The notes: generated from the sequence alone by a model not told the origin. A DNA stretch of 64,000 nucleotides from Antedon mediterranea (GCF_964355755.1 NC_092671.1:1364001-1428000), one strand, 5' to 3'. Shown: positions 4,460 through 64,000, counted from the first letter of the stretch. Numbers and translations are program-made.

Positions 4460-4469
4460 CACTGTTCCT
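4460..4469. repeat. Left target-site duplication (CACTGTTCCT)
   Basis: Identical to 21960-21969; extending by one base on either side breaks identity. Confidence 0.92.
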
Positions 4470-4679
4470 CGGTCAGTCTAATTACCGAAAACAACCGAAA
4501 ACAACCGAAAACAACCGAAAACAACCATAAACAACTGAAAACAACCATAAACAACCGAAAACAAACCGAAAACAAAATAACAATATCTAAATACCGAAAA
4601 CAAATTTGATGCAGCTACTATATTGACCTCGCACGCCAAACAAATTTCTACAGTATATTTTTTAAATGTCGCCCTCTAT
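4470..4679 (+). repeat. Left TIR with subterminal 10-bp tandem array (ACCGAAAACA)n
   Basis: About 9 copies of ACCGAAAACA or variants. Inner parts (ATCTAAATACCGAAAACAAATTT, ATGTCGCCCTCTAT) also have inverted counterparts at the right end. Confidence 0.9.
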
Positions 4680-5299
4680 TGATAGGTGTTTCTAAAGCCA
4701 ACAAGACCGCGCGCGCAAAGCCAAGGAGATAGAGACCATACGAAATGGAAGTGTGCACAAAATTTAACTCAATATCGTACAAACTCAATGATAACACCGT
4801 GCATTTACTTACAGAATCTACAATATGTTAGATATTTAATATATATGTTACATGAATCTTACGGAGACAAGGAATTGTCTGTAGTCGTAAGACCCTTTGA
4901 AAAATAAAACATTATCATAGAAAAAAACATGAAATAAGGTTTTAAAGATACAAGTTGGAAAGTTAAAGTATTCCTACATATAATATAAAAGAAACTACAT
5001 AATAGTAGCCTAACACTAACACGCACCACGCATAATATATAAGCATTTTAATATATAAGCATTTTTAAATACTGTAATTCGATATAATCACTTCTAAAAT
5101 ATTTTTTAGTATTTTATAACAATTTTAACAACTAGGGATGGTTCTCGAATACATAGTATAATTTCAGCGATTTCAAATGTACTTACCGCATGACAATAAT
5201 ACACCACTTCTACGACGTTTATTTGTGTATATTGTGTTTATATGTAAAACAGTTTGTGAAAAACACCTCTATTCGGTGCAAATCGTAAATTAGCAGGTC

Positions 5300-5490
5300 T
5301 GAAAATAATACTAAAAAGTGGTCAAAAATTGGGACCGTAGTCCGGATTGCCTCCAAATGTAATGGAGTGGTCCTTGGCCACATATTTCTTGCAATAACTT
5401 TTTTGAGTAATTCTGCTAACAAACAGACAGACAATCAAATAAACAGACACACGCGATCGATTAGAGATACCTCCTTGGCGGAGGTAAATA
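5300..5490 (-). mobile_element. Truncated DINE-1/Helentron-associated (HINE-like) non-autonomous element
   Basis: Minus strand starts TTATTTACCTCCGCCAAGGAGGTA (T-rich end, 7-bp hairpin at 5468-5486), followed by a GTCTGTCTGTTTG microsatellite. This is the typical DINE-1-like 5' layout; no 3' end found. Confidence 0.6.
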
Positions 5491-5614
5491 ATAAATAACT
5501 TTTAAACCAATCAATTAATTGTGATAGAAGTATTGTGGTATTTGACTGACTTTGACAAATCAAGAAAGACGCCAATAAAAAAATCCCTTTTATGTAATGC
5601 TGAAGTAATTTTAT

Positions 5615-5733
5615 TTCTATCTACCCAATTAATAAAGAAAAGCCAGTAATGCCAAATTCATTCTGCATACGACTGATCAGGATGTCGTGATCTATCGTAT
5701 CAAAAGGATAAAAAAAAAACTGCCAAAACTAGC
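5615..5733 (-). pseudogene. LINE (CR1/L2-like) reverse transcriptase fragment, copy 1
   Basis: Near-identical to 7676-7789; minus strand encodes an FDTIDHDILISRMQNEFGITG-like RT motif. Confidence 0.7.
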
Positions 5734-5993
5734 ATAATATATCACCCTTTATCATGTTTCATCAACATAATATATCACTTTTAACGCGATAGAGCAGTTT
5801 CCGTACTATGAGATTTATTATATTATTTATACCGACTGATATGTTTCATAAAGTAGACAGGAAATGGTTAGATACTGAATAATCTTACCTAACGTATGAA
5901 GGTTAGAAACTGGGCGAAAATCTGAGTTTAATGTTGATTTGGTCGGGAACCTAAACCAATAATTTCGCAAATCAACATTAGTAGACATTCGTA

Positions 5994-6296
5994 GGGAGTG
6001 AGTGGCCGAGCGGTTACGACAGTGGAACAGTAATTACGTAGCCATAACATCGGCAGGGGTTCGAGGCTCACTCACTCCGTGGTTCTGGTGGTTAGAACGA
6101 GTCTTCTCGGATAAGGACTATAAACCGTAGGTCCAGTGTACACATCTCGCTCGTGTGCACTTTAAAGAACCTAGTACGAGACGAGTAGGGGGTTACCCCG
6201 GTGTATTAGTACATTACAGCCACTGATCACCAACTGGGTCCTCTGGGAGACCAGTCTTTGACTGAAGAGGTTACCCAGTATAAATATAAATTCAAT
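5994..6296 (+). mobile_element. tRNA-derived SINE with Deu/Nin-type central domain
   Basis: A box TGGCCGAGCGG, B box GGTTCGAGGC, acceptor-like stem GGAGTGA/TCACTCC, then CTCGGATAAGGACTATAAACCGTAGGTCC..GCACTTTAAAGAACC and a short AT-rich tail. A decayed relative lies at ~57400-57498. Confidence 0.8.
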
Positions 6297-6679
6297 CGAT
6301 TCTGTGTTTTAAAACTTTTATTTTTATTTAAAATGTATTAGGATAAAAATGGGCAAAACGGATATATTGCTACATTTAAAAATGGAGGTCAAATACACAG
6401 TACAAATATTTTGTATATAGCCCGATTTAAACAAATGACAGGAGAAAAACATAATATCTATTTGGGTATTTATTTCTAACTATACGTTGATTTGTTTACA
6501 AACTTTTACGATTGCATGTTCATTAAATTCGTCATAACCATGCCAGGTTACTTTCCAGAGGTGAATGACGATATAATATTTTTACATTAAATGCATTGGC
6601 GATATTGTTGTTACCCATATTTTATGTACATCAAGGATTATGTGTTGCGCTGTATTATACATTTTTTTTTACTTTGATG

Positions 6680-6681
<2 letters not shown>

Positions 6682-6749
<68 letters not shown>
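6682..6749. repeat. (TA)n microsatellite
   Basis: About 34 perfect TA units. Confidence 0.98.
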
Positions 6750-6750
<1 letters not shown>

Positions 6751-6826
6751 TGAGGACTAGTTGTGTTCCAACCGTACCACGCCGAGAATGTTAAAGGGTC
6801 GTTATCCAATCGAGTTAAAGAACAAT

Positions 6827-6909
6827 ACCATGAAATGGTCTAATGGTTAGAGGGCAACTGCATATCAAGCAGACGGTCCGAGTTCGAGTCTCGGTTGGGT
6901 CGACTTTTT
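6827..6909 (+). other. tRNA-like Pol III unit (pseudo-tRNA) inside a repeat adjoining (TA)n
   Basis: A box TGGTCTAATGG, anticodon-like arm CTGC-ATATCAA-GCAG, perfect T arm CCGAG-TTCGAGT-CTCGG and TTTTT at 6905-6909; the acceptor stem pairs poorly. Confidence 0.6.
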
Positions 6910-7302
6910 CTCATTCTCACAGATTTCCTCATCTTTATCATTTCAAAAATTAATTAAATAATTTTCAGTGTATCACCGGGCGGTTTGGAATTTATTTCTA
7001 TGCCTGTTGTGTTTTTATATTTATACAATTGTATTGCGAAGCACTGTGTAAATTATATATAAATAAATACTGTCAAATTACAGTGCTCATCGGAACATGA
7101 TCTCATAAACGCGTCATTGGCGAAAGTTCCGTATTTTTTAGTTGTATGAAAAAATGTCTCTGGCGGGATTCGAACCTGTATATACGTTTCATACAAAAAT
7201 TGTAATTAATCACGGCAAACAATTCTACGTAGTTCCTCGGAAATCTGTCTTAAGGCCATAACTGACAGGCCTATGCAACTCATCGAATTAATTTACTAAC
7301 TT

Positions 7303-7620
7303 ATTTTACAGAATTGATGCCGTCAAGAACTTGGCTGGGATGATGCAATACCTCGCACCATCCAATCCGAATGGAATATTGGTTAGATGAACTTAGAAGG
7401 CATGAAATATGTTACAAACTACAACACAAAAAGTATGCGAGAGCGAATTACACCCTTTTTTAGATGCTATAATTAAGGGCCAGCGTTTCTGTAGTTGATG
7501 ACACTAACTATCGATGAGGCAGCACCCATAGATAGTAATGAAAATAAGTCAGTCTGAGATTTTCAACATGGGAGAACCTCTGGAAAACTATAGCTTGGGT
7601 ACCAGGTCCTGAAATACAAG
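7303..7620 (+). pseudogene. Degenerate BEL/Pao LTR-retrotransposon pol relic
   Basis: Plus-strand translations across stops and frameshifts give ILQ..CRQELGWDDAIP..QSEW..WLDEL, ELHPFLDA (cf. ELHxFSDAS) and RFSTWENLWKTIAWV (cf. RFSSWxRLxRVTAWV), in the expected order but with large deletions. Confidence 0.72.
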
Positions 7621-7675
7621 GCTCGACTGAGACAAATATTAAAACTACCAAGGAAGAAGAATGGATCCATCAATA

Positions 7676-7789
7676 TTCTATCTACCCAATTTAAAGAAAA
7701 GCCAGTAATGCCAAATTCCTTCTGCATACGACTGATCAGGATGTCGTGATCTATCGTATCAAAAGGATAAATAACCTGCAAAAACTAGC
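7676..7789 (-). pseudogene. LINE (CR1/L2-like) reverse transcriptase fragment, copy 2
   Basis: ORF 7563-7781 contains FDTIDHDILISRMQKEFGITGFSLNW, matching the non-LTR RT motif (A)FDTxDHxILxxxL..GIxG..LxW. Confidence 0.75.
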
Positions 7790-8358
7790 GTTAACAAAAT
7801 TATTGAACCAGTATGAATATGATGTTTCAAAAGAGCACGTCATGAAGACCACAACATTTGAGAAATGTCTATTCCCACAATCAAATGCAATCACACACGT
7901 ATAAAGCATGCTGTGTATTTCAGTTTCTTATAGATACGGTATCAGTAACTTGAACTAGTATATTATGGAGATACTCTGTGGAGATCGATAGTTCTATCAA
8001 CTATGGTTGTTCATTTATTTGGTGCTCTTTAAGTATAGAATAGATAAAGATAAGCTAAAGCTTCACTGTTTAAAAACACAGACGATTTATTGTTGACACT
8101 TGAGAATTTGTATAAGTTATTCATAAATCTAATTTTTTTACGAAAAAAAAACCTAATTTCACAACTAATTTTAGTGAATTTTCATATATTTATATTTAAT
8201 CTCTATCGAACGGTGGGGCAGGGAATAGGCCTAATGGAGGAGGTAGGAGGGTGGGGATGAGCTATATTATAATGATGTAGGCATATGTATAATACCATTA
8301 AAATATACAATAGACACATTATAATGTCAACAACCTTATAATAAAACAAATACTAATG

Positions 8359-9391
8359 GAGAAAAACTCGAAAACAGAGACCCCCACTAAAACGTCTCAT
8401 TATATTGGGGGTCTCTTTTTTTGAGATTTCCCGAGACCCCCTAATATAATCCCTGTTTATTGAGAGTGTTGCAAATACCCACCAACGAGCTTGGTCATAA
8501 ATTATTAAAACCCAACTTTTATCGCAAAAACCGTGAATTTATGTTTATTTATTTATCAATTTATTTTTATTTTTTTAATTCATTTCTTTTTAAAGGTTCG
8601 CCCAACACAATATATTTGTCTTCATCCTCCAGTCTGCCTCAAAGTCTGACCTCATATCATTTTGTTATTGCATTGTACGTTATTATCTTTTATGCTTGTT
8701 AATAAAGGTTACGAAACTAGTGTCAGTTTTTGAAATAATCTCCCGCTTTTTAGCTTCTAACATGCATTTATACATCTTACTTAACTTCTAGGACGTCGAC
8801 CTTGTATTCCAAAATGACAGTCTCTTCACACGCGTTCAAGAATTCATCAATCTTCTTATCGTTGCGGCATGTTCTTTGATATCGGCATATCAGTTACCGT
8901 TTATTACTGATACGTCATTCTGTGATTTTGAGACGTTTTAGTGGGGACCCCCTATATAACGTAATATTGACCTAATATTGAGACGTTTTAGTGGGGGTCT
9001 CTGTTTTCGAGTTTTTCTCGAAAACAGAGACCCCTATATAACGTAATATTGACTTAATATTGAAACGTTTTAGTGGAGGTCTCTGTTTTCTAGAAAAACT
9101 CGAAAACTGAGACCCCCTATATAACGTAATATTGACTTAATATTAAGAAGTTTTAATGGGGGTATCTGTTTTCGAGTTTTTCTGGAAAACAGAGACCCCC
9201 TATGTAACGTAATATTGACTTAATATTGAGACGTTTTAATGGGGGTATCTGTTTTCGAGTTTTTCTGGAAAACAGAGACCCCCTATATAACGTATTATTT
9301 AGACGTTTTAGTGGGGGTCTCTGTTTTCCAGATTTTCTCGAAAACAGAGACCCTGGGTCTCGGGTCTCTGGTCTCTGTTTTTGAGACACCC
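8359..9391. mobile_element. Nested foldback-type DNA element remnant with 82-83 bp hairpin-containing tandem repeats
   Basis: 8359-8399 is the exact reverse complement of 8979-9019. The array at 8929-9354 has units with a 19-bp stem GGGGGTCTCTGTTTTCGAG/CTCGAAAACAGAGACCCCC. The right end GGTCTCTGTTTTTGAGACACCC looks like a TIR terminus; the left terminus is missing. Confidence 0.65.
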
Positions 9392-9679
9392 GTTTCGACC
9401 TATCTCTTAGTCTCTGGTCTCTGTGTTCGAAGAACCTTAGTAATTTTATCAAGATCATACAAAGGAGTTCCTTACATGTTTATTCTTGACGGTAACCTAT
9501 TTTGCAATATGTCAGTGGAATAACTGGCATTTTATCGGAGTCGGACGGTTTTGTCAAAATAGTGTTTGATATGGCGATAGCACCGGTTCCGTGTGCGGTT
9601 ATTATCAAAGCAGCCTGTTGGTTTCCGATTTCTTAAAGATGGTCCCAAATATGAGAGCAGCTTTGGCAAAATGTGCATT

Positions 9680-9941
9680 GCGATTGGTCTAGAACTTTGA
9701 CGGTGTTAGGCTTCAGAAAATAAGCCAATAAAAAAGACCTTCATGCAACTATGTAAAAAGCGTGGTTCTGCTGAAGTTTCTTTCCACTATTTAAAGCGAT
9801 AAAAAAACACATCATACCTTTATTCTTGAATTCTCACTGGAGAAAATCCATCTAAATCTTTATTTTTGTACAGTTCAGTTCAGTTGTACAACAGTTCAGT
9901 CTATTTTTACTTAACCGTTCGGTTCTGACGAGCACACAGTG
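9680..9941 (+). promoter_or_regulatory. Candidate promoter and non-coding first exon of the transposon gene
   Basis: ATTGG (~9683) and CCAAT (~9725) boxes, repeated Inr-like TCAGT at ~9870-9901, and a consensus donor GTG|GTAAGT at 9942 that could join the acceptor at 10845. Confidence 0.45.
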
Positions 9942-10848
9942 GTAAGTCATTCATAATTATTTACAGTTCATTTTTTAATAGTTAATCATTATTCAGTGTA
10001 TAAAGAATGCTTTAATTTAAATATCTACAACGGTATTCAAGTTATTTATTTGTGCGAATCGCAATTTTTCGCGTATACGCATTCGCAGTTTAATTTTTAC
10101 CCAAAAATCATCAAACTAATCATTTTGACTAATAATGATATAAAGAATTGAAAAACAATAAAGCCTAAGTTAAGCAATTTGATTTGTGTACTTGTTTTTT
10201 TTCTTTTTCTCTTTTGTGGCGCAAACACCACTTTTATTCACATTCATATTATCTCATATTACATAAAATCGTATTATTTAACTTGTAAATGTCGTTACAG
10301 TTCATAAGTAACATTTTTACATATATGAATTCTGTATTACTCCTTTTTTCATTAATTTTCTTATATTTTGTTATACACTTGACAGGATCATCATTATCAT
10401 CTATCCCGTTTTAAAATAGTTCACACATTTTCATTTGTTTGTTTTCATTTTACAACCCGGATTATACAATATATTTATATACATGATAAAAATAAACAAT
10501 AATAGCTCAGTACCACCAGTAACCCGTATCACTGTAATTCTTTTTCTGTTAATCGTATCAAATTAGAAATTATATTATCATAATCTTATTTCTTAAAGCT
10601 ACCCATTTTTCTATACTTTTTTCTTTATTGTTATATGTTTCACATTCAATGTTATATAACATATTGCTTTTAAATGAATTCCATAAAGATTTACCGACTG
10701 GCTTATTTAGTGCAGATAACATTTTTATTCTATAAATAGTAAATGCTGCAAAAGTGTAAATATAATCTGATAAATATAATGTGTACTTGCTAATGATAGG
10801 ACCTTACAATTGCTTTCAAACCAATTGTTCTTATTTTACTTTCAGAAT

Positions 10849-11854
10849 ATGTACAGACAAAAAAGGCAGCACAAAAAAACTAGACCTTGTTTAACTTGTT
10901 TTGATTGTGACAAGAAAAAAACGGGGAAATACTTTTGTGGTGTTTGTAAGTTTGCGTGCAACAATGACAGTATATTTTGTGATTATTGCTTACGCTGGTT
11001 CCACATATTGTGCGAAAACTTAACTAAAGCAAACTTGCATAGCTTAGGTAACTCTCCTTTGCATTTCACTTGTTCCGAATGCTGTAGCCCTAATGGCAGT
11101 TTTGATTTTTTGGCCTCATTAGAGCGTATTGATTCAGCTACCAAAAACAATTACAATATACTTGACATAGCGCAAAGTGAACGTTTATTTCTACGTAATC
11201 ATCGCTTTAGTAAACCCCCGTTTACGATATCTCAACAGTATGTCATCGATGCTGTTTCTACAAGTATAATGAACAAATGTGGAGGTGGGCGTTTAATCCC
11301 TGTATCTGTCGCTGGTGACGGTAGCTGCTTGTTTAATGCCGTAGCTGTTGCTTTGACTGGCAATGAAAACATTGCTACTGAACTTCGCGTAAGAACATTT
11401 GTTGATATGGTAGAAAAAGAAACATTCTACAAGGAACTGCACAAACATTCAAAAATTGCTTTAACCAGTCCTGATTACAATCTCGCTTGTTCAGATTGTA
11501 GTCGTGAAAGCGGTTATTCTTCAGCTTGGCAGATACAGGCGTTGTCTAGTGTTATAGGGCAAGAAATTATTTCTGTGTATCCTCCTTATAATGGCGTTAC
11601 TGACAATGCACATCGCATATTGAATAGAAGTTTTTATCCTTGCGAAGAAACAGCTGACAGACATCCGATTTTTATTATGTGGACTAGTACACTATTACCT
11701 TCTTCAAAGGGTACGTGGATTCCTAACCACTTTGTCCCGTTATTGGACAGTTCTTTAATAGATGAGAGAGTGTGTTTACCCGAAATATTGTCATCTTGCT
11801 TGTCATCTACTTCGTATGACGACATTGGTCACAAGAAAGTAATCAAAAGGAAAG
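10849..11854 (+). CDS. First coding exon: PHD finger plus vertnin-type OTU cysteine protease/deubiquitinase domain
   Basis: PHD C4HC3 pattern CGVC..CDYC..WFHILC..CSEC (~10936-11082). OTU motifs VAGDGSCLFNAV (Asp 11317, Cys 11326), ELRVRT, YSSAWQIQALSSVIG..I.SVYP, IFIMWT, WIPNHFVPL (His 11728), resembling VRTN-family OTU domains. Acceptor TTTCAG at 10845 precedes the ATG; donor AAG|GTAAAT at 11855. Confidence 0.88.
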
Positions 11855-14800
11855 GTAAATTAGGCCTACTCTACTAATTTAGACAAATGGTTTCTTATTT
11901 ATTTGTACAAATTTAAAAAAAATAAAATTTTAGGATAAGAATACACAAAACTTATCCGTACGTAGTGTACGCAATAGATTGGTTCATTGTTATTTTTTAT
12001 TGTAACGAAGTTATCTCAGAGGTGTGTTTATATTATTGACCGAGATAAATCTAAATTTTTATAGTTCAAAAAAAGAAAAGGCGACCGAAAATGAAAGAAC
12101 GAATCGCAACTATAGTACCCATATCATCTGATTCCGTTGACTCAACACCACAGGTTGATCCTACAGACTTTCCCTCCACTTCTGTTGATAGACAACCTTT
12201 CCATAAACGGGATATGATTTCCCTATCTCCACTGTCCACGCCCAACAGCGACAACGTACCCATGTCGATGACAACGCCCGACTTGAAAACCACAACAGAT
12301 ACGCAACATGCAAGAGGTAGTGTTTTGTTCTGTTATTTTTTTTTTAACAAAGACATGTTTTATTTAATAAGTGTAGGCGTCTATAGAAAACTGAGATATC
12401 TGATTGTATCTACATCAAATACAATTGTGTGTTTGTACTTATCGATATGAATCTACATTTTTATAGTGCGAAAAAAGAAAACAAGGCGACCGAAGAAGAA
12501 GCAACGAATCGCAACCACAGTAACCATATCATCTGATTCCGTTGACTCAACACTTGATCCTACAGACGTTCCCTCCACTTCTGTTGATAGACAACCTTTC
12601 CATAAACGTGATATGATTTCCATATCTCCACTCTCCACATCAAACAGCGACAACGGCAAAAAGACAGACACAAATGCCACGATGGCTAATTTAGAGGGCT
12701 ATCCAGCTACCTCTTTTTTTAACCAATCTTCCAATATAGATTCTGATCTGATTTCATTATCACACCCATTTTCTGACCCCAACAAGAACAGCAATGATCA
12801 TGCAGACACCAATGAAAAGTTACTACCTAATCATAATGATGTATTGCATATGCCTATAACAGGAAAGCCTTCCGATAGTGTGATTTTCCAATCCCCAATT
12901 TGTAACCCCCACAGCGAAATCATAAAGGAAAAAAGCACCATAAAAACTATGCAACATGAAGGTAAGTGTTTTGTTCGTTTTGATCTTCGCATTACAAGAT
13001 CTGTGTTAGAAAACACAAATTTTAGATATATCTAAGTTTTCTAGATCTAAAAAACTCAGATATTTGAGTTTCCTAGAATTATGAAATTTAAATAACAAGA
13101 TCCGAGTTTCAATCTTCAAATATAAAAATCAAATCACATAATACAGTAAATCGTGTCATTATTAATAAGAGGGTAGTGTTTAAAATACACCTATCATTGT
13201 AAGTACTGTTATTTGCAATATAGTACTGCGGTCAACCTGCATAAAATGCGCCTAAAATGTATAACATGATATAGAACACTGTTCAATGTCTGATTGTTTA
13301 TCATGTATGTTATTTACCTTTAAAAGGCAAAAGAAAAGCTCCCAGCAATAGCCTGAAAATATAGGGGAATACATTTGTAGTTATGTATTGCATTATGGTT
13401 TGACAAATATTTTATATATTTTCAAAAAGGAAAACAGCAGAGGCGACACACTGTATTTTTCAAGATTGAAGATGTCGGTGATAATTCACCATTTATATTT
13501 TCTTCGTCCGAGTCTGAAGTTGATCCTACAGACTTTCCCTCCAATTCTGTTGATACACAACCTTTCCATAAACGGGATATGATTTCCATATCTCCACTGT
13601 CCACACCCAACAGCGACAACGTACCCATGTCGATGACAACGCCCGACTTGAAAACCACAAAAGATACGCAACATGCAGGAGGTAGTGTTTTGTTCTGTTT
13701 TTTTTTTTGTAAAAAATAAATGTTTTATTCAATAAGTGTAGGTGTCTATAGGAAACTGAGATATCTGATTGTATCTAGATCAAATAACATTGTGTGTTTG
13801 TACTTATCGATATGAATCTACATTTTTATAGTACGAAAAAAGAAAACAAGGCGACCGAAGAAGAAGCAACGAATCGCAACCATAGCAACCATATCGTCTG
13901 ATTCCGTTGACTCAACACCACAGGTTGATCCTACAGACTTTCCCTCCACTTCTGTTGATAGACAACCTTTCCATAAACGTGATATGTTTTCCATATCTCC
14001 AATCTCCACACCAAACAGCGACAACGTACCCTTGTCGATGACAACGCCCGACTTGAAAACTACAACAGCTACGCAACATGCAGGAGGTAGTGTTTTGTTC
14101 TGTTTTTTTTTTTTTTAACAAAGACATGTTTTATTTAATAAGTGTAGGTGTCTATAGAAAACTGAGATATCTGATTGTATCTACATCAAATACAATTGTG
14201 TGTTTGTACTTATCGATATGAATCTACATTTTTATAGTGCGGAAAAAGAAAACAAGGCGACCGAAGAAGAAGCAACGAATCGCAACCACAGTAACCATAT
14301 CTTCTGATTCCGTTGACTCAACACTTGATCCTTCAGACTTTCTCTCCACTTCTGTTGATAGACAACCTTTCCATAAATGTGATGTGATTTCCATATCTCC
14401 ACTCTCCACATCAAACAGCGACAACGGCAAAAAGACAGACACTAATGCCACGATGGCTAATTTTGAGGGCATTCCAGCTACCTCTTTTTTTAACCAATCT
14501 TCCAATATAGATTTTGATCATCAATTTTCTGACCCCAACAACGACAGCAGTGATCATGCAGACACCAATGAAAAGTTACTACCTAATCGTAATGATGTAT
14601 TGCATATGCCTATAACAGGAAAGCCTTCTGATAGTGTGATTTTCCAATCCCCAATTTGTAACCCCCACAGCGAAATCATAAAGGAAAGAAGCACGTCGAT
14701 GACAACGCCCGACTTGAAAACCACAAAAACTATGCAACATGAAGGTAAGTGTTTTGTTCGTTTTGATCTTCGCATTACAAGAATAGATCTGTGTTAGAAA

Positions 14801-17800
14801 ACACAAATTTTAGATATATCTAAGTTTTCTAGATCTAAAAAACTCAGATATTTGAGTTTCCTATATTTATGAAATTTAAATAACAAGATCCGAGTTTCAA
14901 GCTTCAAATATAAAAATCAAATCACATAATACAGTAAGTCGTGTCATTGTTAATAAGAGGGTAGTGTTTAAAATACACCTATCATTGTAAGTACTCATTG
15001 TTATTTGCCAAAAATAGTACTGCGGTCAACCTGCATAAAATGCGGCTAAAATGTATATCATGATATAGAACACGATTCAATGTCTGATTGTTTATCATGT
15101 ATGTTATTTACCTTTAAAAAGCAAAGGAAAAGCTCCCAGCAATAGCCTGAAAATATAGGGGAATACATGTATAGTTATGCATTGCATTATGGTTTGACAA
15201 ATATTTTATATATTTTCAAAAAGGAAAACACCAGAGGCGACACACTGTATTTTTCAAGATTGAAGATGTCGGCGATAATTCACCATTTATATTTTCTTCG
15301 TCCGAGTCTGAAGTTGATCCTACAGACTTTCCCTCCACTTCTGTTGATACACAACCTTTCCATAAACGGGATATGATTTCCATATCTCCACTGTTCACAC
15401 CAAATAGCGACAACGTACCCATGTCGATGACAACGCCCGACTTAAAAACCACGAAAGTAACGAATCATGCAGGAGGTAGTGTTTTGATCTGTTGTTTTTT
15501 TTTTAACAAAGTAATGTTTTATTCAATAAGTGTAGGTGTCTATAGGAAACTGAGATATCTGAATGTATCTAGATCATATAACATTGTGTGTTTTTACTTA
15601 TCGATATGAATCTACATTTTATAGTGCGGAAAAAGAAAACAAGGCGACCGAAGAAGAAGCAACGAATCGCAACCATATCATCTGATTCCGTTGACTCAAC
15701 ACCACAGGTTGATCCTACAGACGTTCCCTCCACTTCTGTTGATAGACAACCTTTCCATAAACGTGATATGATTTCCATATCTCCACGCTCCACACCAAAC
15801 AGCGACAACAGCAAAAAGACAGACACAAATGCCACGATGGCTAATTTTAAGGGCATTCCAGCTACCTCTTTTTTTAGCCAATCTTCCGATATAGATTTTG
15901 ATTTGATTTCATTATCACATCAATTTTCTGACTCCAACAACGACAGCAGTGATCATACAGACACCAATGAAAAGTTACTACCTAATCGTAATGATGTATT
16001 GCATACGCCTATAACAGGAAGGCCTTCCGGCGATAGTGTGATTTTCCAATCCCCAATTTGTAACCCCCACAGCGAAATCATAAAGGAAAAAAGCACGTCG
16101 ATGACAACGCCCGACTCGAAAACCACAAAAACTATGCAACATGAAAGTAAGTGTTTTGTTCGTTTTGATCTTCGCATTACAAGATCTGTGTTAGAAAACA
16201 CAAGTTTTAAATATATCTAAGTTTCCTAGATCTAAAAAACTCAGATATTTGAGTTTCTTAAATTTATGATATTTCAATAACAAGATTCGAGTTTCATTAT
16301 TCAAATAGAAAACTCAAATCACCAAATACAGTAAATCGTGTCATTATTAATAAGAGGGTAGTGTTTAAAATACACCTATCATTGTAAGTACTGTTATTTG
16401 CAATAGTACTGCGGTCAACCTGCATAAAATGCGGATAAAATGTATCATGATATAGAACACGATTCAATGTCTGATTGTTTATCATGTACTGTATGTTATT
16501 TACCGTTAAAAAGCAAAAGAAAAGCTCCCAGCAATAGCATGAAAATATAGGGGAATACATTTGTAAGTTATGTATTGCTTTATGGTTTGACAAATATTTA
16601 TATATTTTTAAAAAGGAAAAAAACAGAGGGGACACACTGCATTTGTCAAGATTGAAGACGTCGGCGATAATTCACCAATTATATTTTCTTCGTCCGAGTC
16701 TGAAGTTGCTCTAAGTAATTCCGAAACACGATACAGTCACATAAACAATTCATTTAGTTCTGATCTGGAAAAGCAAGGTTCGTTATTTAATTTACACAAC
16801 CTAATTGAAACACTATATTAATAAAATCTACATTATCTTTGTGTGACACAATATTCGAAAACAAAATTCATTATCATTTCCAATATGCAATTAAAATTAA
16901 AATAATTCTGTTTATTTTTGTGGGAAATTGTGACGGCTGATATCTTTTATTTTCCAAATAAAACTATCTTTAGATGTATCGACTACGTTTTAGCGTGTTC
17001 TTAAGGTACAATTACATGTTACTAATATACTAATATTCTATTGTGAAAATATTACATATAAAATAGAAAATGCATGCATCATACATTTGCTCAAAAGTAA
17101 CTATTGAAATAAAGTTTATAAACAGTGCCCGCAAAAAAGGAAACATGCCTATTACTGTTATTAAATATTTTGAAATTTTCAATATGCTTCGTTTTAGGTG
17201 ACCGAATGTCGTGCAAAAGGTTCACAAAGCGGTTGTTAAACAAAAAATTTGTTCAGGTGTCTGAACTATACCAAATCCTCATGAAAACATCAGAAAATGC
17301 AACATTCCCAGACATTCCGCAGGGTGTTAAAGAAAATATGTTATTTGTTGTCAACAATGAAGGCAATGTACAACAACGTTTTGGAGGTGGTCGTAGCTTC
17401 TTTCCTGATGATTGTGGTGTATGGGACTCGTCAAGTAGTAGTACTCCGAAGACACAGTTCACAAGAGTAGCTGGAAGGCTTATCACCATTGTCTTTAAGT
17501 GTGATAGATTTTGCATTAAAAAAAACGGTACTTGGGTCCCGCTCGTACCACAACCGACTAATATTATAACTTTGCATAGGTGTTATTGTAAATTAAAACG
17601 AGACAAAGGGTACAAAAAACGAGTGTCGTGGATAGAAAACGAAAACGAAAAAATGAACAACTTCAATAGGCCTAAAGCAGTAGTTGAATACATTGGCAAT
17701 TTTCCTTTTACCATTTCGTCACATGGTAATGACAGACATACACACACAGAATACGTACGTACTCATCCGAAAGTTCTACGTGATGCTGAATGTAGACTTG

Positions 17801-19077
17801 TCCATTCCAAACCCAGGGATACTTACGCAGATATGGTTTTTTCTAACCCCGAAAGCGCACCCAGAGATATGAAACAACTGAGAAATTTGAAATATAACCG
17901 ATCAAAAAAACTCACCACAGGTAGTAGGTCTAATGTTGCCGATGATATACAAAATTTAATAACCGAATTAACAAAACATGAATTTGTAAAAAAAGTCTTT
18001 GCTGTACCTAATCAGCCTCCTTGTGTAATTCTGTACACAAACAATCAAATTAATGACTTACGAAGGTTTTGTTGTGGCAATATTTCTCAAAGTATACTAG
18101 GGATCGATAGGACTTTTAACTTGGGGGCTTGCTATTTAACGGTTACTGTTTTTAAAAACACTCTATTGCTTAAAAAAGAAGCAAATGATCATCCCATTTT
18201 TGTCGGCCCGATGCTATTACACTGGGATGGTCGGTACAGCACGTATCTTGATTTCTTTACACATTTGCGTTGTCAGCTTGACAGTGACATAAACAATTCC
18301 GAAGTTGGTATGAGTTGTAATATGGTCATAGGTTCCGACGAAGAAAAGGCAATTTTGAAAGCTTTAAACTTTTCTTTCCCCAATTCGCGACACATATTGT
18401 GCACAAGGCATATCAAGCAAAATGCATCTCGTTACTTGCTTGAAAAGCAAGGAGCAAATAATAAGTACCGACAAATAATACTAAACAAAATCTTTTCGCC
18501 GTCCGGATTACTTGGGAGTACAAACATTTCACAATTTGACAAACGTTCACTACAATTGGAAATAGATTTCCAAAAACAAGTTCCACTATTTGGAAATTAT
18601 TTTAGAGATAAACTGTGCCCAACCTTAAAAGAAAAGGTTTTCAGACCCAATATTACCGACCGAGTGATTCCGGACCGTTGGACAAACAACAACTGCGAAA
18701 GCATAAATCACATTCTAAAACTATCCATTAACTGGAAACCACAAAGGCTTCCAGATTTAGTACAAATTCTACACAAAATTGCGAAATTACAATATGCAGA
18801 CGCCCGGCGTGCAATTCACGGACAAGGCAATTTTTACGTTATCCCTAGATTAAAGAAATATACAGTGCCAAATTCGGTTTGGATAGGGAAATCTGAAGAT
18901 GAAAAAAACAAATATGTTTTACGATTTTTGAAAATATCACTGAACAAAACAGTTGCAAAAACAACAACATCTAAAGACGGGAAATTAATTATTCCTGCAA
19001 CACCACAATGTGCTAAAAAACCAGGACAAAAAAAAAGAACCAGAGTTGCAAAAACCACATCATTCAGTAAGAAATAA
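10849..19077 (+). CDS. Predicted 10-coding-exon fusion protein (~1860 aa): PHD finger - OTU (vertnin-like) protease - low-complexity repeat linker - MULE DDE transposase
   Basis: Manual splicing: 10849-11854, 12065-12316, 12467-12961, 13430-13681, 13832-14086, 14238-14744, 15224-15475, 15625-16146, 16616-16777, 17198-19077 (5583 nt). Every intron is GT..AG and phase 1, and every internal exon is a multiple of 3 and stop-free in the joined frame. Four donors are the weaker GTAGTG and three acceptors end AAAAAG, so exon usage needs RNA support. Confidence 0.75.
12065..16777 (+). repeat. Tandemly duplicated exon-intron cassettes encoding a Ser/Thr/Pro/Asp-rich linker with basic heads
   Basis: Exon order X,Y,Z,X,Y,Z,Y,Z' (252, 495, 252, 255, 507, 252, 522, 162 nt) with duplicated introns (four of 149-151 nt, three of 468-479 nt). 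Shared core DPTDFPSTSVDRQPFHKRDMISISPLST; heads RKKKTRRPKKKQR or GKQQRRHTVFFKIED. Confidence 0.9.
17198..19077 (+). CDS. Terminal exon: MULE/Mutator-family DDE transposase
   Basis: Uninterrupted frame. Motifs LGIDRTFNLG (D at 18106), IGSDEEKA (D at 18337), ILCTRH (CxxH, 18400-18411) and WTNNNCESINH (E at 18697); N-terminal DDCGVW..VVEYIG..SHGN..YVRT putative DNA-binding region; basic C-terminal tail. Acceptor TTTTAG at 17197 is in frame for phase 1. Confidence 0.92.
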
Positions 19078-21619
19078 GAGTTGTATCAAGACTTGAAAGA
19101 ATTAATGGTGAAGATTTTACTTAGGCTATTTTATATTCACACTTATTTGAAACTCATAATCTACAATAATTACACTCTTTTTATAATAATATTGTTTTGT
19201 ATATGTTTTTAACTTAATATCATTTATATTAAATCAGTATATACTTGTATAATACAAAGATTTGAATGTGAAAAAAATAGTACCGTATTTATTCGAATAA
19301 ATTGAATAAATGCAACCCAACCCCTCTAATTAGGGCGACAATTACACAAACTAATTTTTACTCTATTTAACACGTCGTGATGTAATTGTATTGTAGTTTT
19401 CATATTGAAGAGGTTCCGAGATATCTATTGAACCATTTTACACCAAAAAAAAAAATAAAAAGTGCATTAAGCTTATTCAATCGGTTTCCCTAAATTTTGT
19501 CGAAGAACCCCATTATCCACGCCATCAATGTGTCAAAAGCTAGTAATTTGATTAAATGTTCTCAGTTGTGTTTTATGTCGCACATTTAATAATTCCACAT
19601 CTCGTACGTTTTACTATTACTTTAACAATGAAACGTTTATTATTAAAGGTAGGCCTACCTTAGTTTCTCGTGTTATTAATTCTGTTTGCACTTATTAAAT
19701 CTATCTTTTTATATTAATTATTGTTAAAGTTAAGTCGCATTTTAAATATACTTATGTATTTACTCCAGTATTTGTCACAGTGTTAAATTTTTATTATTTA
19801 ATAACGCATTTACTAGATAGCATTTACAGATTATTATTGCAATTTTAAATATGTTTATATTGGTTTGTACATGGAGGTCCTCCATGGTTTGTATAACACT
19901 ACTTCCTAAAAACATACGTTCTCTGTCTAACAATTTTTAAAAGCAATGCAATCGTATCCGATTTAGATTGACAACTTAGCAGTTGTAAATATTCAGTTTT
20001 GCAATTAGCATTAAGTTATAAAATTTCTTTTTTCTTTTAAACTTTTGTTCGATAATTTGTATTTTTTCTCCACATAGAATATAAATCACTTTGCCTTCAA
20101 CAAACATGTGTATTAAGTTTGTTCTTTTTCAAAAAAAAATTCACAAATTGATATTTTATTGAGTTTCAACCTATACCTAAAAAAACATTAGATTTCAGTA
20201 TGTTTTGTGTGTTTTTTTTTACAAATTAAATTTAGGTAGATGTTGATAATACATTTGATATCTTGAATCAAGTTTGTATACCTCAAAAACATTATATTTA
20301 ATGCCTTTCCTCTGGTCAAGAGACGAGATAAGCCCTTGACCAATGTTAGGACCAATCAAGGTGCTTTAAACAGTCCTGGCTTTGTTTGTATCAAACCTGT
20401 TAGTGGCGGTAATTATCGCTGTTGGTTTTTATTTTAATAAAATAAAAAATAAAAAAATAAAAAAGGAATTATGTTACAGATTTTCAGTTGTGTTCTCATG
20501 TATTATTTAAAACATGAAAAATGTTATTTATTTACTACACTATGTTATTTAAATTTAGTTTGTTGTAGTTAAACAAACATGGCTAGATGTTGATAATACA
20601 TCTGATATCTTGAATCGAGTTTGTACCTCGAAACAAAATGAAATTTAGTACTAAAAAGATGTTACAGACTTGAGTTGTGTTCTCATGTTCTCTCAATATG
20701 ATTAGGCCTAAGGTTAATAAAGATTTACAAGTTAATGAAACATGTTTGTGTTTTCACTTCCTGTCATCATTTTTGTCAGACTATTATATATATATATATA
20801 TTTCAACGGAGAAAAACATTCATTAACTCATTAATCAGGGGAAACAACATTACGTTTAATTGTTAAACAACTTAATCAAAATTAAGCTGTCGCTGCAAAA
20901 GACTTAAAATGAATCCTCTCTAAAACGCACACTGCTGGAATTAAGAATTTAACTTATTTAATAAATGTTTATATATTTTTCTTTTTTATTTTAACCTTGA
21001 TTTTAATTTGTATTACAATACTTGTCTAGTCTAGTGGTGAATTGGGCATTACACCAGAAGGCTAGCTATACTCTTTCTTTCAAATTGATTTTTTAATGAA
21101 ACAAGTACTTTGAACAAATTCATGCGTGAGCACATAGGCATCATTTTCTCTCTATTTGCATTCAAATAAATTACAGTTATTCGTTTAGTGAACAAATAAA
21201 TTCAAGAATCAACATTAAAATAACGTCAAATGATATGAGTTATGAGGTTCCATTTTTCATGAATTTTACGCGCGAGAGTACCCATTTCCGGCCATCTAGC
21301 TAGGGGTGTCATGGGAGTAAATTAGCTTCGTCACAGGCCCCACCATGGTTCCAATACTTCTTATCATTTTATCAGAACTAAACTTACCCACCCACCCACA
21401 ATGATCATCTCAGGCATTACAAATTTCTTAGTAGGCCTTCTAGCTGTTATATGGCCACCGAATAACAAAGTTTAATAAATAATAGACTATTTAATTAATT
21501 TTCAGTGGATTATTTGTTGGGTACTTGGGGGTATAGGCCTACTATAAAACAAAAAAACACCTCTGACGTATTTAGCTTTGCTTTTTGCTTCTCAGTTTGA
21601 AATGAACATGTCATAGGGG

Positions 21620-21689
21620 AAAACTTTACCTTTGCTCCCCCCCCCCCCCCCCCACATCTCCCTATTTCAAAATCCTGGATCCGCCCCTG
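21620..21689. mobile_element. hAT-like MITE end fragment
   Basis: Poly-C run followed by AAATCCTGGATCCGCCCCTG, a common hAT MITE terminus; no partner end seen. Confidence 0.45.
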
Positions 21690-21780
21690 ATTTTGGTGCC
21701 GAATACTCGTCAGATCCTGACAACCAAACCAAGGCTCACGTGTAATAACGCAGTGCTATCTACTTCAATATATCATTAAT

Positions 21781-21959
21781 ATAGAGGGCGACATAACAAA
21801 AAATTTGTTTTCGGTAATTAGATTTGTTTTAGTTTGTTTTCGGTTTGTTTTCGGTTGTTTAGGGTTGTTTCCGGTTGTTTTCGGTTGTTTTCGGTTATTT
21901 TCGGTTGTTTTCGGTTGTTTTCGGTTGTTTTCGGTTGTTTTCGGTAATTAGACTGACCC
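21781..21959 (-). repeat. Right TIR with (TGTTTTCGGT)n array
   Basis: Reverse complement of the left TIR with a somewhat larger number of 10-bp units; begins ATAGAGGGCGACAT. Confidence 0.9.
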
Positions 21960-21969
21960 CACTGTTCCT
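21960..21969. repeat. Right target-site duplication (CACTGTTCCT)
   Basis: Identical to 4460-4469. Confidence 0.92.
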
Positions 21970-35469: not shown

Positions 35470-35643
35470 TATTCTTTCAATATCATTAATTATAATTAAT
35501 TTCTAATTAGAAAAAAGAAATAAGATGCAATAGTGAAAATTGTTTAATATTTTATTTCTTAAATATTAAACAATTTTCACTATTGCATCTTATTTCTTTT
35601 TTCTAATTAGAAATTAATTATAATTAATGATATTGAAAGAATA
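35470..35643. repeat. Perfect AT-rich palindrome with 83-bp arms and 8-nt loop
   Basis: 35470-35552 is the exact reverse complement of 35561-35643. Confidence 0.97.
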
Positions 35644-61528: not shown

Positions 61529-62013
61529 TTTAGTACAATGAGCTAACAGCTTATTCCTCTACATTCAGAATGAATACCAGATAAACAAATCTATGAGTAC
61601 ATACCAAATGACACTTATGAATCCTCTCAAGGTTCAGCTTAACTGTACAAATATTAAAATTATTGACAATGATCACCATGGCAACAAATTGCTACCAAAT
61701 CTGTACCTGACCTTCACATTAATAAAAGACCATTAGCTTGTCCACCTGTCTGACCATTAGTTTTACCAATTGCCCTGTTGCTAAGCATTCATTAATCCTG
61801 ATGTCATGGTAACAAAATTAATGTTCTGTGAACATTACTAATTCATTTATACCATGGACATCTTTTAATATCTCCAGTTTTAGTTTTCAGGGACATTTAA
61901 TTGTAGCTCTAAATATTTTCCGTCTGAAATTTTATGCTGCATTAAAAAAACTCATATGTTAATATTTTTTTCTGTTTGCTGTAACAACGTATTAGTGACT
62001 TATAATTCATATC

Positions 62014-62832
62014 TATGGAACGCCGTTTACGCAACATTTCGATGATATGAATTTTATGACGCGATATGTGAATGAAATGCATCGATATGAATTGAATGGC
62101 CTGATATATGAATGAAATGTTTTGAATTGAATGCTTTGAATTGAATTTTTTGAATGAAATGTTTTGATTGAAATGTTTTGAATGAAATGTTTTGAATAAA
62201 ATGTTTTGAATGAAATGTTTTGAATGAAATGTTTTGAATGAAATGTTTTGAATGAAATGTTTGAATTGAATTGAAAAGTCAAACTATTGGCGGCGTATGT
62301 CATTCCCGCTCGCGATTTTTTTTCAACCTCTTAATAGGCCTAAGCATGGGTACCCTCATCTCCTTTCAACGCTGTCATCAATATGAATCCTTTACAGAGA
62401 CTCCCTAACAGACCTGAAACATTGGAATACATATTTCCGAACCCAGGTCTGTTAGGATTCTCTGTAAAGGCAGCGTGGAAGAAAGGAGATGAGGGTACCC
62501 AGGCTTAGGCCTAAGAGGTTGAGAAAATAATCGCGAGCGAGAATGACATACGCCACCAATAGTTTGACTTTTCAATTCAATTCAAACATTTCATTCAAAA
62601 CATTTCATTCAAAACATTTCATTTAAAACATTTCATTCAAAACATTTCATTCAAAACATTTCATTCAAAACATTTCATTCAAAACATTTCATTCAAAATA
62701 TTCAATTCAAAGCATTCAATTCAAAACATTTCATTCATATATCGCACCATTTAATTCATATCGATGCATTTCATTCACATATCGCGTCATAAAATTCATA
62801 TCATCGAAATCTTGCGTAAACGGCGTTCCATA
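62014..62832. mobile_element. Non-autonomous IS3EU-like foldback DNA transposon
   Basis: TATGGAACGCCGTTTACGCAA..TTGCGTAAACGGCGTTCCATA termini and 6-bp TSD CATATC (62008-62013, 62833-62838). The arms of ~390-410 bp contain 14-bp arrays (GAATGAAATGTTTT)n. TAY..RTA ends with 6-bp TSDs characterise IS3EU. Confidence 0.82.
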
Positions 62833-64000
62833 CATATCAGTGTGTTTCTAAAGTTTCATACATTTGTAACTATAGAGGGCAGCATACAAGTTAAAAAAAT
62901 ATAAGGCTGGCTATCCTGTTAACATTAAAATTACAATGAGGAGGTGCGCTTGCAAAAAAATTGTTCTCTGGGAAGACAAAATATTCAGATCATAACCCTG
63001 AAATGATACTCAATCAATCAAAATCAATTTATCAATTCCATAAAACTAAGGATATAAAAATATGGCAAAGCTTTTAAGCCAAGACCCTTAAAAATAAATA
63101 AGGTAATAAGAAGTTATTTATATCAATAACAATAACAAACAGAATAAACTTGGACGCTGCTACCAGGACCTTGCTTATTAAAATGCACACATAAATACAC
63201 AATTGCAAAACCTATTTAATGTATCAGGTTAACTATAAAATAGAACAAAATTCAGGGTTTTATTATCCCTTTTCAAAATGTTTTAAAACACCATTGAGGA
63301 TTGTCTACCACAGTGCGTTTCCTATGTCAAACACCCTGTAATAAATCTCCTTTATAATGTTCATAATAGGACAATGTATAGACTTTATGTCTTTAAGTCA
63401 CAATCACAATACTAAGAATGTTACCACAAGCACAATCATTCTTTTTATTACACATACTAAATTCATTAATTTAAATAAGTTTCTTTTTCACAAATCTCAC
63501 ACATTTTGTGTTTATAAACAATCGTTATACTTTGTGGTTTTTGGAATATAGATTATTCATCTGCCATAACTTATGTTTTTATGAGACACAAGAGGGCAGC
63601 TTACCGACAAACTTTCTTTTTTTCTAATAAACGTCACTTTATGTTTTGAAATTTTCTACAAAAAGAAGAGTTATTGGTGAGATGTTTTGCCATCCTGTGA
63701 CATAATTTTCACTTGAAAAATATGAACTTCAATGAAAAAGAAAAATAGATATCAAAAATTAATTAATAATTTCACTTTAGTTTTCAAAAGGAGAGAGCAA
63801 GCGTCCCAAGCATTCTATGATTTGCCGCAAGACTCGACCTCCACATCACTAGCCTTACGTTCATACCTCTATACCACTAAGCTACTCCACAGTAGTTATA
63901 CAATTTATCATCCAAAAGAAAAGTTTAATCCATTGTATATTACAACATAACATAAAAAATTGAAAAGATTATGAAACTGGACAGCGTATTAATAATCGTG

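Follow-up and report, generated by a model that had tools for sequence, protein, structure and literature searches.

A complete Mutator-like element of Antedon mediterranea with a predicted PHD-OTU-linker-transposase polyprotein

A 64,000-nucleotide stretch of Antedon mediterranea DNA (GCF_964355755.1 NC_092671.1:1364001-1428000; all of it is referred to as the window) contains just two long non-repetitive open reading frames (ORFs), at 10780-11877 and 17122-19077, lying 5.3 kb apart. The first encodes a PHD finger and an OTU protease domain, and the second encodes a transposase of the Mutator-like element (MULE) superfamily. Do the two belong to a single gene, and if so, what might a PHD-OTU module do for a transposase?

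One predicted gene across ten exons

When ten exons across 10849-19077 were joined, they gave an open frame of 1,860 codons followed by a stop. Each of the nine introns is GT-AG and in phase 1, as an earlier sequence-only reading of the locus had proposed for a frame of about 1860 amino acids (aa), and 256 of the 256 subsets of the eight internal exons keep the frame open. The parts of the gene are as follows.

9870-9941, plus strand: putative non-coding first exon, predicted from sequence only, whose GTAAGT donor would join the AG just before the ATG
10849-11854, plus strand: coding exon 1, with PHD finger, helical connector and OTU domain (Pfam, conservation and AlphaFold2)
12065-12316, 12467-12961 and 13430-13681, plus strand: exons 2, 3 and 4, linker
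13832-14086, 14238-14744 and 15224-15475, plus strand: exons 5, 6 and 7, linker
15625-16146 and 16616-16777, plus strand: exons 8 and 9, linker
12065-16777, plus strand: exons 2-9 together, eight symmetric phase-1 exons encoding an 899-aa linker
17198-19077, plus strand: coding exon 10, MULE transposase with an N-terminal beta-rich region and an RNase-H-like DDE core
Within 19078-21800: 3' untranslated region (UTR), with AATAAA at 19296, 19305 and 19454

Near the putative first exon there are TCAGTT motifs, which we take to be initiator-like.

The 899-aa linker is rich in Ser, Thr, Asp and Pro and carries five basic clusters resembling nuclear localization signals. Exons 2-9 are the product of a tandem triplication of about 1.77 kb, with copies 90-92% identical. 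Of 12 indels between paralogous linker exons, 10 have a length divisible by three (the remaining pair of indels, of 10 and 5, falls in one exon pair), compared to 0 of 19 in the paralogous introns. A Fisher test on this contrast gives p = 1.5e-6, which overstates it because the pairs share events. The linker exon copies have a pN/pS of 0.61 (45 non-synonymous and 21 synonymous changes). The indel contrast indicates that the linker is translated.

The same fusion was found in relatives. Exon 1 matched 1,906 clusters (50% identity) at E<=0.001 and 522 at 1e-10; the relatives examined were the best 150 of the 1,906, of which 19 are at least 800 aa long. Behind the OTU, 18 of these 19 long relatives carry a MULE transposase (17 by a dedicated search and one, of the FLYWCH type, by Pfam), and a PHD is detectable in 12; the remaining one is a tyrosine-recombinase protein. 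Some transposase was seen in 42 of the 150, and 107 of the other 108 are shorter than 800 aa and thus too short to judge. L001 (1,018 aa, PHD-OTU-MULE) and L004 (884 aa, OTU-MULE) are unbroken genomic ORFs.

A captured PHD-OTU, as Pack-MULE-like cargo, might instead lie beside a stand-alone transposase gene starting from a Met near the beginning of exon 10. Such a pair would suit the long ORFs 5.3 kb apart, the in-frame Met at the fourth codon of exon 10 and the weakness of some acceptors. Nonetheless, relatives have unbroken fusion ORFs, the phase-1 donor of exon 1 fits every downstream exon and the linker indels preserve the frame, and we regard two separate genes as very unlikely. Very probably, then, the anatomy described here is correct and the locus encodes a single PHD-OTU-linker-MULE polyprotein, with this copy predicted to be spliced into one mRNA. 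Contigs of two samples were also compared in four runs (X1, X2, X4 and X5). In the X1 contigs, presumed to come from RNA, 0 of the 15 joints listed (of 142) matched predicted junctions, and one contig piece crosses the last acceptor with intron sequence retained; neither result has any bearing on expression.

The reader, protease and transposase modules

Both domains of exon 1 scored over their Pfam cut-offs (PHD, E=3.6e-5; OTU, E=4.2e-5). The PHD finger lies at 10936-11094 with C4HC3 ligands from C30 onward, and the complete zinc-ligand set claimed earlier is thus upheld. The OTU domain occupies approximately 11239-11748, with C160 at 11326-11328 and H294 at 11728-11730. Among relatives, C160 is kept in 106 of 114 spanning rows, H294 in 87 of 101 and both in 79 of 99, while 23 of 26 full-length fusions have both catalytic motifs. 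D134 (11248-11250), which 89 of 111 rows retain, is one candidate for the third catalytic residue; in A20 the catalytic residues are Cys103, His256 and Asp70 (bioRxiv 10.64898/2026.03.25.714162). Of the intact Asp/Cys/His set put forward in the sequence-only reading, Cys and His stand; the Asp, D157, lies in the loop before C160 and is uncertain as the third catalytic residue.

The AlphaFold2 model of residues 21-310 forms one compact unit, with a predicted local distance difference test (pLDDT) of 94.2 and a predicted template modelling score (pTM) of 0.92, which suggests that the PHD and OTU pack together. The OTU model matches OTUD3, Cezanne, VCPIP1 and A20 (Z 14.2-14.5; root-mean-square deviation 3.0-3.5 over 135-173 residues) at 16-23% identity in the structural alignments, and its His strand resembles those of A20 and VCPIP1. 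Like A20, Cezanne and VCPIP1 in fold and His strand, it differs in setting, since those are host regulators, and the likeness does not establish linkage. A query of the ESM Atlas with exon 1 gave no usable match. With conservation, the AlphaFold2 model and the fold match together placing the catalytic Cys and His in an OTU fold, the domain is predicted to be, probably, an active deubiquitinase. An OTU directed at a ubiquitin-like modifier (NEDD8, SUMO or another) or serving mainly as a binding scaffold has precedent in the Ulp1 SUMO proteases that take the same slot in other MULEs and in Ginger1 (PMC2836005), and in vertebrate vertnin, an inactive OTU homolog (PMC10318531), by whose name one relative was automatically called. 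We consider it distinctly unlikely, given the strong conservation of Cys and His and the fold match to ubiquitin-specific OTUs.

In the PHD fingers of the family, an aromatic residue stands two before Cys1 in 52 of 59, a Trp is found in 53 of 59, and a small residue (C/S/A/T) stands three before Cys3 in 47 of 59. In an alignment to Pygo2, these line up with the K4me cage residues of Pygopus, Y341/W366/A356 (PMC2726290). The C4HC3 ligands and the semi-aromatic cage residues of a PHD that reads methylated lysine 4 of histone H3 (H3K4me) are therefore present, and the finger is predicted, by this likeness, as one that may read H3K4me. Pygopus itself is a host regulator, and the matching positions do not establish the ligand. 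As a separate observation, the family PHD has an extra, often conserved Cys (C37, 10957-10959) four residues after Cys2, at the position of Pygopus Val350.

In exon 10, the Pfam MULE match fell just under the cut-off (E=4.9e-6; 27.3 vs 27.6 bits). The D-D-CxxH-E transposase reported before is nevertheless intact, with D1538 at 18106-18108, D1615 at 18337-18339, C1636-x2-H1639 and E1735 at 18697-18699, and 17-19 of 19 relatives keep these catalytic residues. The transposase model has a pLDDT of 80.1, and its best PDB match is ISCth4 (IS256/Mutator; E=2e-7). The N-terminal beta-rich region likely binds DNA; a weak CG-1 match in this region of one relative is consistent with a DNA-binding domain there. 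The FLYWCH finger of some Phantom MULEs gave no match at E<=1 on exon 10, unlike P0063, P0096 and P0197, which do have FLYWCH.

The element, its possible mobility and its relatives

The gene sits inside an element that spans 4470-21959 (17,490 bp), whose terminal inverted repeats (TIRs) and target-site duplication (TSD) lie outside 10849-19077.

4460-4469, no strand: left TSD, 10 bp, identical to 21960-21969
4470-4607, plus strand: left TIR, starting CGGT, with about nine 10-bp subterminal repeats (TRF period 10)
4608-9870, no strand: non-coding left arm with nested host repeats, namely short interspersed element (SINE)-like pieces and an 83-bp tandem hairpin array
19078-21800, no strand: non-coding right arm, including the 3' UTR
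21801-21959, minus strand: right TIR, starting GGGT when read on that strand and containing about twelve 10-bp subterminal repeats
21960-21969, no strand: right TSD, 10 bp

The TIRs are about 140 bp long, approximately 91% identical left versus right, and built of a short terminus followed by 10-bp subrepeats. In the window, the TSD 10-mer occurs at 4460-4469 and 21960-21969 only, and from base composition an exact match would arise by chance with a probability of about 5e-7. The related OTU-MULE loci L003 and L027 have the same ends as this element (CGGT left, GGGT right, ACCG-type repeats); thus, the TIR pair belongs to the gene and does not enclose it by chance. A TSD was not confirmed for L003, where the contig begins at the TIR, or for L027, where the flanks differ. 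L003, 8.2 kb long, has one ORF for a PHD, another for OTU-MULE and a C-terminus that looks spliced; its PHD (511-1026) stands roughly 1 kb ahead of the OTU-MULE frame and is probably an exon of its own. The outermost TIR base is asymmetric, C on the left and G on the right, in the window (4470/21959), in L003 (1/8169) and in L027 (3434/6474), and may be a feature of end recognition in the family and not a mutation.

A DDE core with CxxH, TIRs and a 10-bp TSD are traits of the MULE superfamily, for which Table 1 of PMC6446971 gives TSDs of 8-11 bp. The predicted polyprotein is located, in line with the earlier reading, within a TIR-bounded MULE of animal type, and its OTU catalytic residues are kept across relatives. 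At 17,490 bp the element exceeds the 1.4-10.0 kb given for arthropod MULEs (PMC13359780), owing to the triplication and the nested host repeats. Neither arm gave a Pfam match to a second gene of the VANC or mudrB kind in 12 frames; for the left arm (4608-9870), the search covered six frames at E<=0.05.

Contig evidence hints that the element has moved recently. In X2, a 5,539-nt contig matches 21960-22600 and then continues with 1,948 letters unlike the end of the element, and a left-flank piece ends near 4460 with a depth of 44.2, identical to that of the flank contig starting at 21960. Contigs of X2, X4 and X5 all begin exactly at 21960. In the transposase contig, no differences were seen over 2,084 nt, and X2 depth over the coding part is about threefold that of the flank, although depth is no measure of copy number. 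From these partial contig tables of one sample, which may itself be the source of the window, we infer that an empty allele exists, along with a small number of young copies; the element was probably mobile recently. On X2 contigs, 4551-5271 stands at about ninefold the flank depth, hinting at non-autonomous derivatives with the same left end.

Contig depth is also very high over parts of the left arm, in which several other features were observed. Very high-copy SINE-like insertions lie at 5990-6290 and 6815-6950, the second with a tRNA-like piece at 6836-6904. A decayed retrotransposon fragment at 7310-7620, recognized by eye and with no Pfam match, is presumably BEL/Pao-like. The tandem array of 83-bp hairpin units occupies 8946-9353, with a related copy at 8350-8450, and lies roughly 500 bp ahead of the point where transcription is predicted to begin. 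Rfam matches at 8981-9354 were all far below the gathering score and were discarded as reflecting the hairpin repeat. Elsewhere in the window are a foldback element at 62009-62837 (314-nt arms, 96% complementary, with 14-bp repeat units) and a perfect 83-bp inverted repeat with an 8-nt loop at 35470-35643.

Independent searches aimed at longer relatives added PHD-OTU-MULE proteins, namely P0001, P0006, P0007 (a Batillaria gene model with a truncated OTU), P0008, P0190 and P0192, and P0010, P0012 and P0191 are OTU-MULE proteins. Named hosts across the relatives are a gastropod, a mantis shrimp, mussels and rotifers. The clusters of P0008 and P0010 have 20 and 21 members on many contigs, as expected of multi-copy elements. 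Among 60 loci, 13 had an OTU-like match: it was present in 7 of 7 with a matched transposase start and at least 1.5 kb upstream, and in 1 of 4 with 1.0-1.2 kb upstream, counts that are biased because one search pattern was itself an OTU motif.

The linkers of relatives are 47-419 aa long (median 156 aa for the family), unconserved and often rich in Ser/Thr or acidic residues; the 899-aa linker, about sixfold longer, is special to this copy. These linkers bear on the possibility that the OTU is a self-processing protease which releases the transposase from the polyprotein. Such a role has been proposed for Medicago MULEs with a C-terminal protease of the OTU superfamily (PMC1702500), and the linker here is long and exposed. 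However, an LxGG motif is absent from it and from 19 of 19 homolog linkers, and the 20 linkers compared share only one weak similarity. We regard self-processing as very unlikely; the self-cleavage raised in the sequence-only reading thus found no support.

OTUs detected by the same profile also sit on a Helitron, a FLYWCH-MULE, a tyrosine recombinase, a hAT-like element and another transposase type, and this spread suggests a general benefit. P0075, P0199 and P0203 have this kind of OTU fused to a tyrosine recombinase, a 1,894-aa SAP-domain protein and a hAT-like transposase, respectively. P0002-P0005, from Mytilus and others, combine a different transposase-like protein with a related OTU, C-terminally placed and bearing a long insertion, and then a repeat tail; their OTUs form a supported clade. 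A tree built from 45 OTU rows leaves 27 of its 42 inner branches open, with bootstrap not settled, and gives no direction of swapping. P0009 and P0011, of about 1,475 aa and with clusters of 181 and 63 members, show by eye four tandem transposase N-terminal regions and a degenerate catalytic core, and look like a domesticated MULE-derived host gene.

Known systems and a possible role at the transpososome

The fusion of an OTU to a MULE transposase is itself known. Table 1 of PMC6446971 (Dupeyron 2019) lists MuDR-6_HM, a Hydra element from Repbase, as the only member of group 14, with an 'Ovarian Tumour Gene' motif in its one ORF, a length of 5,227 bp and no TIR, TSD or Zn finger. As here, the OTU is in the transposase ORF, and the DDE core printed in the supplement of PMC13359780 has, by eye, the same D1, D2, CxxH and E motifs. 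Novelty of the protease fusion as such, which the sequence-only reading had left open, is thus not supported. Unlike MuDR-6_HM as tabulated, the window element, at 17,490 bp, combines TIRs and a 10-bp TSD with a PHD and a predicted spliced linker of 900 aa built from repeats; this comparison draws on the published table and the printed core, and a PHD in the Repbase entry is possible. The Dupeyron alignment file gave no motif matches. New here are the complete ends, the triplicated spliced linker and the breadth of the family.

Other transposons combine similar domains. Ginger1 carries OTU, Ulp1 and PHD domains, hydra and lancelet MULEs carry Ulp1, and a role in transposition was proposed (PMC2836005). 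Like the element described here, Ginger1 fuses a transposase to a ubiquitin-family protease and at times a PHD, but its transposase is Gypsy-integrase-like, the domains are C-terminal and the PHD is paired with Ulp1, not OTU. Babu 2006 reported a C-terminal OTU-type protease in Medicago MULEs and C-terminal PHDs in those of Ciona and C. elegans (PMC1702500). In these MULEs, as in Rehavkus (PHD) and those of hydra and lancelet, a transposase is likewise joined to a protease or a PHD; the domains are single and, where the sources state it, C-terminal, whereas here PHD and OTU form one N-terminal module. Helentrons bear OTUs (PMC6431247), and the VTD proteases of Helitrons are proven deubiquitinases proposed to protect transposition proteins; the same 2022 source stated that transposon OTU domains were untested for activity (PMC9741609). 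Helitrons thus share transposon-borne deubiquitinase domains, including OTUs found by the same profile, but are rolling-circle elements.

In the literature covered, which excludes Repbase Reports and most subscription papers, we met no paper that reports a MULE with a PHD-OTU module at its N-terminus, nor one that derives vertnin from a transposon. Searches for relatives returned no vertebrate VRTN sequence, and only the Helitron protein P0198 bore the automatic UniRef name Vertnin; beyond this name, likeness of the family OTU to vertnin is our assumption.

Our best explanation, which we hold to be about an even call, is a Mutator-like cut-and-paste transposon with a PHD-guided, cis-acting deubiquitinase at the transpososome. 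It builds on what is observed, namely the ends, the open frame, the intact catalytic residues and the same fusion unbroken in relatives. The transposase would bind the 10-bp TIR repeats and cut and paste the element, while the long flexible linker would let PHD-OTU reach nearby nucleosomes. The PHD pocket would dock on H3K4-methylated nucleosomes and so bias insertion towards active, open chromatin. At the cut, the OTU would trim ubiquitin chains in cis from the transposase or its neighbours, which could keep the DNA-bound transposase from extraction and degradation and damp ubiquitin signalling at the breaks. This particular role, PHD docking with ubiquitin removal in cis, we put at evenly balanced at best and perhaps somewhat less. 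A cis-acting deubiquitinase is favoured because the closest folds are chain-editing enzymes, the PHD pocket fits active marks, OTUs occur on many transposon types and Helitron VTDs are active. Among the roles suggested earlier, protection from degradation and target-site choice would fit best.

Alternatively, the OTU of the TIR-bound protein might strip ubiquitin from H2AK119 or H2B in the chromatin of its own element and keep the element transcribed. A PHD and OTU in one compact predicted unit is what a nucleosome-directed enzyme might look like, transposases can activate their own copies, as for AtMu1 (bioRxiv 10.64898/2026.08.24.746577), and anti-silencing is known for VANDAL elements. We nonetheless consider anti-silencing unlikely: the closest OTU folds are chain-editing deubiquitinases, the PHD pocket resembles a reader of active K4-methyl marks and not of silent chromatin, and some 5.3 kb of sequence with nested repeats separates the predicted promoter from the left TIR.

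In its widest form, the proposal of a PHD-guided, cis-acting deubiquitinase describes a large, barely described family of invertebrate MULEs. Its rigid, H3K4me-reading PHD and active, A20/VCPIP1-like OTU would steer the transpososome to active chromatin and edit ubiquitin there, its OTU cassette would have been exchanged between MULEs, Helitrons, tyrosine-recombinase elements and hAT-like ones, and would be the active source of the dead OTU of vertnin in vertebrates. That all of this holds together is doubtful. Several points weigh against our best explanation. Splicing, catalysis, substrate and histone binding are all things that we infer. Exons 4, 7 and 9 have weak acceptors, with a run of A before the AG, so that internal exon usage is uncertain; since the frame is open in every subset of internal exons, the fusion does not depend on them. 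In 20 of 99 spanning rows the Cys or His is lacking or misaligned, D134 is not paired with A20 Asp70 in the structural alignment, and fold likeness to A20, VCPIP1 and Cezanne gives neither linkage nor substrate. The position of Pygopus Asp352 is variable in the family PHDs, and the PHD matches Pygopus no more strongly than the ALFIN or DIDO PHDs. No PHD was seen in P0010, P0012 and L004, and the PHD is therefore not essential everywhere. The putative empty allele is read from flank pieces that stop near the left end of the element and start at its right end.

What makes this locus valuable is its complete ends, the breadth of its family and an enzyme module open to testing; it brings no new principle. 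Proteases of the ubiquitin family turn up repeatedly on unrelated transposons, and since at least 2010 it has been suggested that they assist transposition (PMC2836005). The locus also presents a transposase linker grown by tandem duplication of symmetric exons. Given the complete ends, the intact frame and a compact 290-aa PHD-OTU that should express easily, the question is directly testable, and the copy, intact and probably still mobile, offers a ready means of testing the idea of a PHD-OTU reader-eraser. Should the PHD of this family indeed read H3K4me, a Mutator transposase would carry its own targeting module, comparable to the PHD of RAG2.

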